From the NCBI GenBank assembly GCA_964342525.1, contig CAYFGQ010000013.1, forward strand, positions 477 through 64,476: DNA of 64,000 bases, given 5' to 3'. Positions 19,071-21,231 of the stretch are shown piece by piece (position 1 is the first letter of the stretch; every line of letters starts with the position of its first letter). The notes below the pieces were generated by a model. That model was not told the origin of the DNA, did not search any database, and worked only from the letters and a program-made list of their open reading frames with translations. Made by a program: the position numbers and the translations under genes. The DNA comes from an uncultured Arcobacteraceae bacterium (GTDB lineage Bacteria; Campylobacterota; Campylobacteria; Campylobacterales; Arcobacteraceae).

Positions 19071-19712
19071 TTAATTACTTTCAAATAGTGATATATTTGC
19101 ATCTGCATCAAGAAGGCTTTCATTTTGAATAAAACCAAAAACTTGAAGGGAGCCTTTTTTATTTAATGAATTTTTATCAAGATCAATAATAATTTGATTT
19201 TCATTATTTAATTCTTCTTGAAAATTTTTTAAAACATCTCCGTTAAATAAAATACTTAGCATACATTTAGTTTTTTTAGTATTTTTACCTTGTAATACAA
19301 GCTGAGGATTTTTAAATGAATTTTTTGATATTAAGTATAGATTTTCAACATAACTAATACCAGCAGTTTTATCATGCCAATTTGATACTTGATAATTTGT
19401 ATTATAAATAGCTTCAATTCTTCCAGAATAAGGAGGAAGAGCAAATCCAGCGGAAATCTCTCCGGTGATAGATAAACTACCTTTTTCCACTATATAGTAT
19501 GTAATAGTTCTTGTTTCTCCATCTTTAAGATTAAACTGATTTGATAATTTTGACTCACCATTTATAGTTATATTGATATTAAAGTGAGTATTGTTTTTAT
19601 CTCCGATTACTCTAAGAGAAAGAACTCCTAGAGAATCTATTGAAAAGTTAAGATTATCAAATTTACTAACAAAAGCAGTTTCATCGTGCCATATTTTTGT
19701 TGTTATGGACAT
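19071..19712 (-). CDS. Protein made of two tandem copies of an uncharacterised ~105-aa module
   Basis: Residues 1-105 and 106-213 share W-H-D-x-T-A-x-[VI]-S...N-L...G-x-K-N-T...N-G...G-S-L-x-[IV]-x-G. Module 1 is about half identical to the N-terminus of the upstream PLC-like protein. Confidence 0.6.
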   Translation of the reverse strand: MSITTKIWHDETAFVSKFDNLNFSIDSLGVLSLRVIGDKNNTHFNINITINGESKLSNQFNLKDGETRTITYYIVEKGSLSITGEISAGFALPPYSGRIEAIYNTNYQVSNWHDKTAGISYVENLYLISKNSFKNPQLVLQGKNTKKTKCMLSILFNGDVLKNFQEELNNENQIIIDLDKNSLNKKGSLQVFGFIQNESLLDADANISLFESN

Positions 19713-19713
19713 T

Positions 19714-21231
19714 TTATTTTCCTTGTCTTAGTTGATTAATCTCCATAGATAATTTAGTCATATTTGAATTAATAAAATCAGTATAAATAATATTAGGATA
19801 TTTATTAGTTGATTTAACTTCATTTAAAATATCATTCAAGTGAGAATTAGCTTTATCTGCTAGATCTTCTATTGTATATAGATTTTGACCTTGCGATATA
19901 TCTGTAAGAATTTGTATTAGAATACTTTTAATATCTTGCTCTATATCTTTATCATTGTTTATAATATCTATGGAAGGTTGGATATTTGCTAAGTGATAAT
20001 TATTTTTTCTTATATTAGATATGATTCCTTTCAAAATAGGATATTTTTCTTCAAATTGGCTAAGTTTCGCATTTAATATAATCTCTTCATAACTCTGTGA
20101 AAGTGTCCAAGATAATAGAAAATAACTGCTATTTGCATTTTCACTCATTTTTTTAAATTGATCATTTTTCATTACATCAAAATTATTGATATCTGAATAG
20201 CTATCAAATAAATTTAAAGAGTCTTGAGTATAAATACCTTGCATTGGAGTTATGTTATAATTTTCTAAGGTTATAATCACTCTTGTTCCATTTTTTGTCA
20301 TCTCTTTTATTGGAGTGTTTATAATTTCTGGATTATTTGGATCTTTAGAATTACTTATAAAGAAATGATTTCCTAATTTTTCTTTTATTTTTCCTACTAG
20401 GTCTTGAGTTTTATTTGCATTTAGACTACTATGATTTACATTGTCATCTTTTAAATCCATAGCATGTGAAATTTTTAAGATAATAATCTCTTTATTATTT
20501 TCATTTTCTAAAATAAAATTGTTTACATCATTTAAAACTTCTTCTAGTGAGTATCCTGTACAGCCTTGATTTTTTAGATTTTTTTTGCCTAAAATATTTT
20601 GTTCTATGGTGTATTGAATATTTTTTGGTTTTTCTTCTGAGTAGTCTCCAATCCAAGTGTAATGTCCCAAATAAAAAGTATCATTTGTATCATTCTCTTT
20701 AATTACAGGTCTAACATCAAAATATCTAACACCAGCATCTAACATTTGTTTAAAAGAATAAGCTTGAGTTTTTGTAATATTAGTTGTTGAATCTTCCGTA
20801 GAAGATGTGATTTTACCCATTCCTGCATCATGAGCACCTGGTATAGTTATTTGTTTTAATGTTGAATTTTGAATAAATGGATCATTTGTCATCCAACTAT
20901 TGAAAGTTAAATCGGGTGTAGTAAGAGTTGCTTCAATATTTCCTGAATAAGGTGGAAAAGCAAATAAAGCACCTCTTATTGATCCTGTAATATCAATAGT
21001 ACCATTTTCAGTCATATTGTATTGAATTGTATGTATTTCGCCATTTTTAAGATTAAAATTATTGCTTGATTTATTTTCTCCATTTACTATAATATTAAGA
21101 GTAAAATGTGTGTTGTTTTTATCACCTTTAATATTTATTGTCAATTTTCCTCCAAAATCTGTAGAGAATGATAGATTTTGAAAATTACTTACTAAAGCAG
21201 TTTCGTCATGCCATATTTTAGTTGTTGCCAT
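19714..21231 (-). CDS. PI-PLC X-domain-like phosphodiesterase with an N-terminal ~105-aa module
   Basis: ITIPGAHDAG (first catalytic His), GVRYFDVRP (Arg) and FYLGHY (second His) follow the bacterial PI-PLC / PLCXD pattern. There is no signal peptide. The gene ends 1 nt before the next gene. Confidence 0.72.
   Translation of the reverse strand: MATTKIWHDETALVSNFQNLSFSTDFGGKLTINIKGDKNNTHFTLNIIVNGENKSSNNFNLKNGEIHTIQYNMTENGTIDITGSIRGALFAFPPYSGNIEATLTTPDLTFNSWMTNDPFIQNSTLKQITIPGAHDAGMGKITSSTEDSTTNITKTQAYSFKQMLDAGVRYFDVRPVIKENDTNDTFYLGHYTWIGDYSEEKPKNIQYTIEQNILGKKNLKNQGCTGYSLEEVLNDVNNFILENENNKEIIILKISHAMDLKDDNVNHSSLNANKTQDLVGKIKEKLGNHFFISNSKDPNNPEIINTPIKEMTKNGTRVIITLENYNITPMQGIYTQDSLNLFDSYSDINNFDVMKNDQFKKMSENANSSYFLLSWTLSQSYEEIILNAKLSQFEEKYPILKGIISNIRKNNYHLANIQPSIDIINNDKDIEQDIKSILIQILTDISQGQNLYTIEDLADKANSHLNDILNEVKSTNKYPNIIYTDFINSNMTKLSMEINQLRQGK

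Follow-up and report, generated by a model that had tools for sequence, protein, structure and literature searches.

Within a 64,000-nt stretch of DNA from an uncultured marine Arcobacteraceae bacterium (referred to as the window; all positions count from its first letter) three open reading frames lie on the minus strand between nt 17916 and 21231. They encode a protein resembling phospholipase C (PLC), a protein made up of two related halves (the tandem protein) and a lipase. A module of about 105 residues opens the PLC-like protein and occurs twice in the tandem protein. We found that this module belongs to a rare family of all-beta domains with eight strands that had not been described before, and that the gene for its two-module form recurs in unrelated bacteria next to a lipase gene of the same type. 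The most likely role of the module, to which we give about even chances, is that of a subunit which takes no part in catalysis but provides binding or targeting for two lipolytic enzymes. What is new here is the domain family and the conserved cassette; the architecture of the proposed role is familiar and the enzyme superfamilies are known.

Copy A of the module comprises residues 1-105 of the PLC-like protein of 505 amino acids (aa; nt 20917..21231, minus strand), copy B residues 1-105 of the 213-aa tandem protein (module 1; nt 19398..19712, minus strand) and copy C residues 106-213 of the tandem protein (module 2; nt 19074-19397, or 19071..19397 with the stop codon, minus strand). The original prediction had given these coordinates correctly and had described A and B as about half identical by eye and the third copy as more diverged, all of which was borne out by pairwise and profile alignment of the three segments. 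A and B share 63 of 103 residues (61%, BLASTP E 4e-43) and reach a Smith-Waterman z-score of 47 against 2000 shuffles; their DNA is 68% identical. The synonymous divergence (dS) of the pair is 0.92 and the ratio of nonsynonymous to synonymous divergence (dN/dS) is 0.34, and thus the duplication of A and B is old and both copies have been under purifying selection. For copy C the pairwise alignments to A and B were confined to the motif WHDxTAxxSxxxNL (E 5e-4 to 8e-4), with z-scores of 4.1-4.7 when the motif was included and of 0.4-0.5 when it was left out. The three-way alignment is collinear with the elements NG[ED] and G[ST]L.[IV].G.I in register. A hidden Markov model (HMM) built from the first modules of the family alone matched residues 108-208 of the window tandem protein, i.e. 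copy C, with an independent E-value (i-E) of 5e-13, and an HMM built from the second modules alone matched residues 5-88 at ∼1e-11 as well as copy C at 2e-29. Because of this collinear alignment, the cross-matching family HMMs and the two stretches per protein that a profile of the three copies matches in about 30 relatives, we conclude that copy C is a real third copy. Copy A behaves as a first-module type: the first-module HMM covers its residues 3-103 (i-E 5e-24) and the second-module HMM its residues 4-88 (7e-12). A six-frame scan of the window found exactly these three copies.

In order to determine how widespread the module is, we searched 1.84 billion representative proteins exhaustively with the profile of the three copies. 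Forty-five proteins passed a threshold of E ≤ 1e-3, and 22 of these also passed E ≤ 1e-10. Long repeat proteins which matched only part of the profile (P0064, P0071, P0073, P0077 and P0078) were treated as unrelated. The family comprises about 40 relatives: some 30 are 213-252 aa long with two matched stretches each and hence have the architecture of the window tandem protein, and a few are free single modules of 108-118 aa. In an alignment of 29 tandem members, which also underlies the structural model below, each module opens with the conserved pattern W-x-D-x-T-x-G-x-S-x-[IF]-E-x-L. Conservation is stronger in the second module, which ends with GGGA-x-ITLTG-x-Y. The window tandem protein diverges from the rest (18-30% identity to 28 relatives); both of its halves are matched by the profile, with 319.5 bits in total, and its modules start with W-x-D-x-T-x-x-x-S-x-x-x-x-L.

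The family becomes visible only by exhaustive HMM searching, whereas a word-indexed homologue search returned nothing except the query itself for the 213-aa protein and three proteins for the family alignment. No relatives were found among the GTDB species-representative genomes when these were scanned with the module profile (the genome of the window is not among the representatives), nor in the plasmid and phage collections; a metagenome scan with a narrower alignment gave four loci. The sequence clusters of the relatives hold one or two members each and the sole name attached to them is 'hypothetical protein', from a metagenome-assembled genome (MAG) of Desulfosarcina. The module had been called uncharacterised, and this description stands. 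There was no consistent Pfam match for the 29 members, nothing for the module in NCBIfam, no match in a profile search of the PDB sequences and no match of any of the three window proteins to PADLOC-DB 2.0 at E ≤ 0.1; a literature search gave no relevant paper on the module or the trio. The module does not map to a well-known named domain in the libraries searched; a match to such a domain would, by the terms of the original prediction, have refuted it. The three copies had been recognised correctly, and the recurrent family of about 40 relatives was missed.

The fold class of the module was predicted with confidence. AlphaFold2, supplied with the 29 sequences, modelled the tandem protein with a predicted local distance difference test score (pLDDT) of 94.6 and a predicted template modelling score of 0.84. 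This alignment-based model replaced a poor single-sequence run (pLDDT 56). It consists of two all-beta domains with eight strands each and very short turns. The strands of copy B span residues 3-104 (block-mean pLDDT 94-97) and those of copy C residues 107-212, in agreement with the all-beta character suggested earlier. A Foldseek search against the PDB found only generic tandem beta-sandwich or jelly-roll binding domains, with query-normalized TM-scores of 0.25-0.36 for the two-domain query, at most 14% identity and root mean square deviations of 10-22 Å. Among the best matches were a Parabacteroides secreted protein, the SIDT1 ectodomain, XepA, Vip3B and PNGase F as well as HA70, the ColG collagen-binding domains, the C1q head and Cry1Aa. 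Against viral structures, too, only generic sandwiches of tail proteins or of the kind found in carbohydrate-binding modules were returned.

The proposal that the module could be C2-like, or otherwise homologous to a named lipid-binding domain, found no support. The list of 20 Pfam families that the 29 members match at E ≤ 1 contains neither C2 (PF00168) nor PLAT/LH2 (PF01477); the window proteins do not match PLAT/LH2 at that threshold, and C2 is likewise missing from the Pfam matches listed for them. Neither C2 proteins nor PLAT-containing structures were evident by description in the top 50 Foldseek matches to the PDB. One of the 29 members, P0040, matched Lipocalin_7 (PF14651) over 55 residues with 25.8 bits at a cut-off of 25.4, which we regard as a lead only; the window tandem protein has no such match. 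A likeness to aegerolysins, both for the module and for the domain of ∼125 aa described below, was also considered and rejected, as there was no Pfam match at E ≤ 10 and no aegerolysin among the PDB matches.

Both putative enzymes retain the motifs expected for catalysis. The gene for the PLC-like protein spans nt 19714-21231 (minus strand), and its catalytic domain, delimited by motifs, PDB match and family HMM, corresponds to residues 106-505 plus the stop codon (19714..20916, minus strand). This protein has no match in Pfam or NCBIfam and falls below PF00388 at E ≤ 1. Its residues 110-183, in contrast, match the phosphatidylinositol-specific phospholipase C (PI-PLC) of Bacillus and Listeria in a phmmer search of the PDB (E 9e-6), in an alignment that covers the positions of the catalytic residues His32/Asp33 and Asp67/Arg69. 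The motifs PGAHDAG (H134 and D135), RYFDVRP (169-175) and LGHYTW (H190) are present, and HD (134-135) and FDVR (171-174) are the parts aligned with the catalytic positions. A custom HMM of the PLC family scored 419 bits on the window protein, and relatives within this custom family do reach PF00388. The protein can thus be assigned, by sequence criteria, to the PI-PLC X-domain superfamily. Compared to the PI-PLC of Bacillus cereus/thuringiensis and to Listeria PlcA, the N-terminal half of the catalytic barrel aligns and the catalytic motifs are kept, but the C-terminal half is longer and divergent. Moreover, those enzymes are secreted single-domain proteins of ∼300 aa, whereas the window enzyme has 505 aa, an N-terminal module and no signal peptide. 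The 33 homologues cover only the catalytic part. Stand-alone homologues (P0002-P0011) carry signal peptides, lipoprotein signals, Cys-rich N-termini or FG-GAP repeats, so that the catalytic family has a secreted form and a cassette form with no recognisable export signal.

The 381-aa product of the third gene (17916..19061, minus strand) matches Pfam Lipase_3 (PF01764) with E 4e-25 and 88.7 bits against a cut-off of 22 bits, and it contains the nucleophile elbow GHSKGAA (Ser145; GHSKG at 143-147) and the motif FLDIVPHLP. We accordingly classify it, on the basis of these predicted features, as a class-3 lipase. It is 35-36% identical to the lipases that follow tandem proteins or are fused to them (35% for the lipase of locus L085) and ∼70-100 residues longer than these cassette homologues (280-318 aa). 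Its C-terminal extension (nt 17916-18200, residues ∼290-381) is rich in Asn and Ile and shows a faint match to Lpg0393_VPS9 of Legionella (E 0.024).

The three genes form one tightly coupled operon. Only 1 nt separates the stop codon of the PLC-like gene from the ATG of the tandem gene (19071-19712, minus strand), and 9 nt that include an AAGGA box separate the stop codon of the tandem gene from the start codon of the lipase gene. Directly 3' of the lipase stop codon there is a terminator-like hairpin (17880..17898, minus strand), which is the sole site of this kind across 17700-21700. Owing to the short gaps and the single hairpin after the third gene we read the locus as one operon in the order PLC, tandem protein, lipase and terminator. 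Upstream, the PLC-like gene and typA diverge from an AT-rich intergenic stretch (21232..21594, neither strand; delimited by the map of open reading frames and the sequence) that presumably holds the promoter of the operon, and a promoter search of this region gave nothing convincing. None of the PLC-like, tandem and lipase proteins has a signal peptide, a transmembrane segment or a hydrophobic segment.

The decisive evidence came from comparing the window with 13 other independent loci encoding tandem proteins, most of which are short metagenomic contigs. In 13 of the 14 loci (the window, L085, L093, L094, L095, L097, L098, L099, L100 and L105-L108) the next gene after the tandem gene encodes a Lipase_3 protein, and the lipases of the 12 other positive loci belong to the subfamily of the window lipase. 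A PLC of the window family is encoded in nine loci (the window, L085, L093, L094, L095, L097, L098, L099 and L100), with full-sequence E-values of the custom HMM between 5e-45 and 3e-118; its gene precedes the tandem gene in some loci, the window included, and comes after the lipase gene in others. Loci L105, L106 and L108 are too short to judge the presence of a PLC. The original prediction had missed that the constant partner of the free tandem protein is the lipase and not the PLC. The G+C content of the loci ranges from ∼0.25-0.27 in the window to 0.57 and one locus belongs to Desulfosarcina, and therefore the cassette is phylogenetically scattered.

The module is also joined covalently to both types of enzyme. 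P0056 is a fusion of a tandem protein and a Lipase_3 domain in the order of the operon genes, followed in locus L102 by the start of a repeat-type PLC. P0052 consists of an N-terminal domain of ∼125 aa, a PLC part that is 29% identical to the window PLC (E 9e-35) and a C-terminal tandem; P0070 is a single module fused to PI-PLC-X, and the PLC of L098 bears a single module at its C-terminus. These cases answer the question of which catalytic domains are fused to the module elsewhere and, together with the conserved neighbourhoods, tie the module to both enzymes as had been supposed. In P0053 and P0066 the tandem is joined to non-enzymatic domains.

Cassette PLCs lacking the module bear other non-catalytic regions at their N-termini, either repeats of ∼45 aa or the domain of ∼125 aa, which is the pattern expected of swappable binding domains. 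About six of the ∼45-residue repeats open the PLCs of L085 (2272-3996), L100 (7282-9027) and L102 (7042-7554). Their consensus is roughly VVEVHxSExxxTLWYHVG and there is no Pfam family on record for the region; they look like an undescribed domain of the repeat or propeller type which takes the place of the module. The unnamed ∼125-aa domain starts with GGYITLVNAT... or similar and was seen in P0052 (1-130), P0053 (1-130) and L099 (7596-8903, in the first ∼125 residues). It stands on the PLCs of L099 and P0052 and is fused straight to the tandem in P0053, and it has no Pfam match and no convincing match among PDB sequences.

Where a PLC does carry the module, this copy resembles its own neighbour most. 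The module of the window PLC shares 59-61% of its residues with module 1 of the tandem protein next to it and no more than 35% with the modules of other loci. For the PLC of L098 the corresponding values are 65% for module 1 of the L098 tandem protein and at most 45% for any other. As this likeness is found in two unrelated loci, module 1 has been transferred to the PLC beside it, or has stayed close to it in sequence, on at least two occasions and at opposite ends of the enzyme.

Taken together these observations suggest the following mechanism. At its core would be the free two-module protein, co-translated with the class-3 lipase, in a system synthesised in the cytoplasm; the PI-PLC-like phosphodiesterase would be the usual third component, which in the window has its own copy of module 1 at the N-terminus. 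We infer that the tandem protein binds the lipase stoichiometrically and supplies a surface that recognises the substrate interface or target, which may be a membrane, a lipid surface or a receptor on it. Through its module the PLC would share this specificity or join the complex of tandem protein and lipase, and a head-group-cleaving and an acyl-ester-cleaving enzyme could then act on the same target.

By analogy, the module may work most like the accessory domains PLAT/LH2 or C2 and like partners of the colipase type. PLAT/LH2 is the domain of pancreatic lipase, lipoxygenases and the Clostridium perfringens alpha-toxin, and colipase is a separate small protein partnering a lipase at the lipid interface. 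The module resembles PLAT/LH2 in being a predicted non-catalytic beta-sandwich of ∼110 residues on lipases and a phospholipase C, and it shares with both systems the combination of an enzyme with a beta accessory that is either fused or a separate subunit. It differs from PLAT/LH2 by the lack of a Pfam, PDB sequence or evident Foldseek match, and from both by the fact that the accessory is a tandem pair with its own gene and that no partner has a signal peptide. C2 domains are known for membrane targeting, and those of eukaryotic PI-PLC and of cPLA2 likewise offer an eight-stranded beta domain beside, in PI-PLC, the catalytic barrel; however, no calcium-binding loop motif was identified in the module and the resemblance is one of role only. 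The best structural neighbours are receptor-binding beta-sandwiches of bacterial toxins and lytic proteins (Vip3 domains IV/V, Cry domain III, botulinum HA70, the ColG collagen-binding domains and PBSX XepA). These are tandem sandwiches which serve binding and not catalysis, but the matches are weak and generic and no sequence relationship was found.

Several observations weigh against a targeting role. In one of the 14 loci (P0057) the tandem gene is followed by the gene for an fn3/IPTL-CTERM protein instead of a lipase, locus L107 has no PLC within 4 kb upstream, and most of the neighbourhoods come from short contigs. The structural matches are generic at TM ≤ 0.36 for the two-domain query. 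The cassette trio has no signal peptides, in contrast to the stand-alone PLC homologues. Self-protection would be needed if the enzymes were active in the cytoplasm, and the lack of export signals fits an inhibitor or a sensor as well as it fits a targeting subunit.

The genomic setting of the cassette was compared with that of related Arcobacteraceae, which share the gene order dnaA-ruvC-(response regulator)-typA. The flanking genes in the window are dnaA, ruvC, the response regulator, typA and ispDF; the TypA proteins of Arcobacteraceae MAGs reach no more than 91% identity to that of the window. The PLC, the tandem protein and the lipase are encoded in none of the 80 related loci. Relatives that have the response regulator contain a gene of ∼225 aa between the regulator and typA (e.g. 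L016, L019 and L023), which we take to be thyX (flavin-dependent thymidylate synthase) by its motif RHRxxS...STRY. No thyX-like sequence was found anywhere in the window, where the cassette occupies this putative thyX slot (17891-21594). The G+C content of the cassette (0.254-0.267) is the lowest in the window. As it replaces thyX in a conserved slot near dnaA, the cassette was apparently gained by insertion at a variable site close to the replication origin. The minimum of the cumulative GC skew at ∼14-16 kb (region 14000-17100) lies beside dnaN-dnaA and the divergent ruvC, which puts the cassette ∼2-5 kb from the probable origin. Contigs with an identical tandem protein and the whole locus conserved were found in metagenome assemblies, at least one of which is labelled TARA.

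The response regulator at 17237-17890 was considered as a part of the system and rejected, since its orthologues occupy the same place in relatives without the cassette. It is an orphan regulator of the OmpR type, conserved in relatives, with no adjacent histidine kinase. A 306-aa protein encoded after ispDF (24779-25699) gave only a weak match to receiver domains. Regulators were seen beside other cassettes as well, namely a histidine kinase/response regulator pair in L099, a LuxR-TPR protein in L095 and a MalT-like protein in L100. Upstream of the tandem gene L093 encodes a DUF6765 protein (147-1313, E 4e-43) with a faint resemblance to Zn_dep_PLPC (E 0.035), which may be a third lipolytic enzyme in the L093 cassette; at this place L095 and L096 carry a gene of ∼390 aa without annotation.

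Other roles have to be set against the targeting role. The tandem protein could be an inhibitor, an immunity protein or a dedicated chaperone that holds the lipase, with the fused copy holding the PLC, inactive or folded until export or activation, much as in toxin-immunity pairs or with lipase-specific foldases and pro-domains. The tight one-to-one pairing and the translational coupling with the lipase would suit such a protein, as would the synthesis of a membrane-active lipase and PLC in the cytoplasm implied by the missing signal peptides; toxin-antitoxin genes and a recombinase lie near the cassette of L099. However, covalent fusion to both enzymes (P0056, P0052, P0070, the L098 PLC and the window PLC) is unusual for immunity proteins, the module is also found on non-enzymatic domains (P0053 and P0066) and as free single modules, and no family named as a lipase chaperone appears among the Pfam matches listed. 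Of the three roles offered by the original prediction (membrane targeting, oligomerisation, and inhibitor or adaptor), that of a mere inhibitor or immunity protein is made less likely by these fusions, which speak for an accessory domain that does work for the enzymes. We consider this explanation unlikely, if plausible; an autoinhibitory or intramolecular-chaperone version of it is possible. A related candidate, an effector-immunity pair of the type VI secretion system, was rejected. Pairs of Tle2 (a class-3 lipase) and Tli likewise place a lipase gene beside a small cognate non-catalytic protein, but Tli immunity proteins are periplasmic and hence carry export signals, whereas the tandem protein lacks a signal peptide, is encoded ahead of the lipase and has been joined to a lipase in P0056. 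Among the genes that flank the cassette, named above, to which the check for this secretion system was confined, there is none for VgrG or an adaptor.

A second group of explanations sees the trio as turned against its own cell. The beta protein would sense an invader or a signal and free the lipase and the PLC to act on the membrane of the cell itself, as in abortive infection or stress-triggered self-lysis. All components are predicted to be cytoplasmic, the distribution is rare and patchy over loci of ∼0.25-0.27 to 0.57 G+C, the cassette sits in the variable slot where relatives have thyX, and toxin-antitoxin genes, a resolvase, an AAA-ATPase_like gene and a MalT-type STAND regulator neighbour other loci. 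Yet the PADLOC models, the phage and plasmid collections scanned and the literature search provided no link of such a trio to defence, and no defence-island context was seen among the genes examined around the cassette. The ordinary transcription regulators adjoining several loci fit regulated virulence or nutrition equally well. With no positive support, we give this sensor role little credence. A bolder and broader proposal, which we hold to be improbable though worth stating, is that the trio is a new, horizontally mobile, cytoplasmically held membrane-destroying system, either an abortive-infection defence or a non-classically released toxin. The module family would then be the specificity or sensor subunit that licenses both effectors, and the PLC copy would co-evolve with module 1 of its neighbour for a shared trigger or mutual recognition. 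It is unlikely, in our judgement, that each module is a lipid carrier, i.e. a small beta-barrel that takes up fatty acids or diacylglycerol like calycins and fatty-acid-binding proteins instead of binding a surface. The eight strands with very short turns and the Lipocalin_7 match of P0040 are consistent with a carrier, but this match is limited to 55 residues of one member in 29 and is missing in the window protein, and no lipocalin, avidin or fatty-acid-binding protein was present by description among the top 50 Foldseek matches to the PDB. Finally, the repeat might be a meaningless leftover of local duplication or a compositional likeness in an AT-rich genome. The cassette has 25-27% G+C, its proteins are rich in Asn, Lys and Ile, and copy C is undetectable in pairwise comparison outside one motif. 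This reading has virtually no chance of being right and is already refuted by the family and selection data: A and B are far more alike than their shuffled versions and evolve under constraint, relatives with a conserved gene neighbourhood occur in loci of up to 57% G+C, and the structural model is highly confident.

About 40 orphan proteins could be covered by a Pfam-type model of the family. That module 1 was repeatedly copied, at the same locus, onto the neighbouring PLC is a neat example of domain recruitment within an operon. The system also offers an experimental handle, as it consists of three small soluble proteins and the natural fusions point to those that work together. If the targeting role holds, the module represents a new protein domain family within a new conserved lipase/phospholipase cassette that extends from Campylobacterota to Desulfobacterota. 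Bacterial class-3 lipases and PI-PLC-like enzymes would then gain a dedicated partner subunit, which would bear on how lipolytic toxins, nutrient-scavenging enzymes and self-lysis systems find their substrate.

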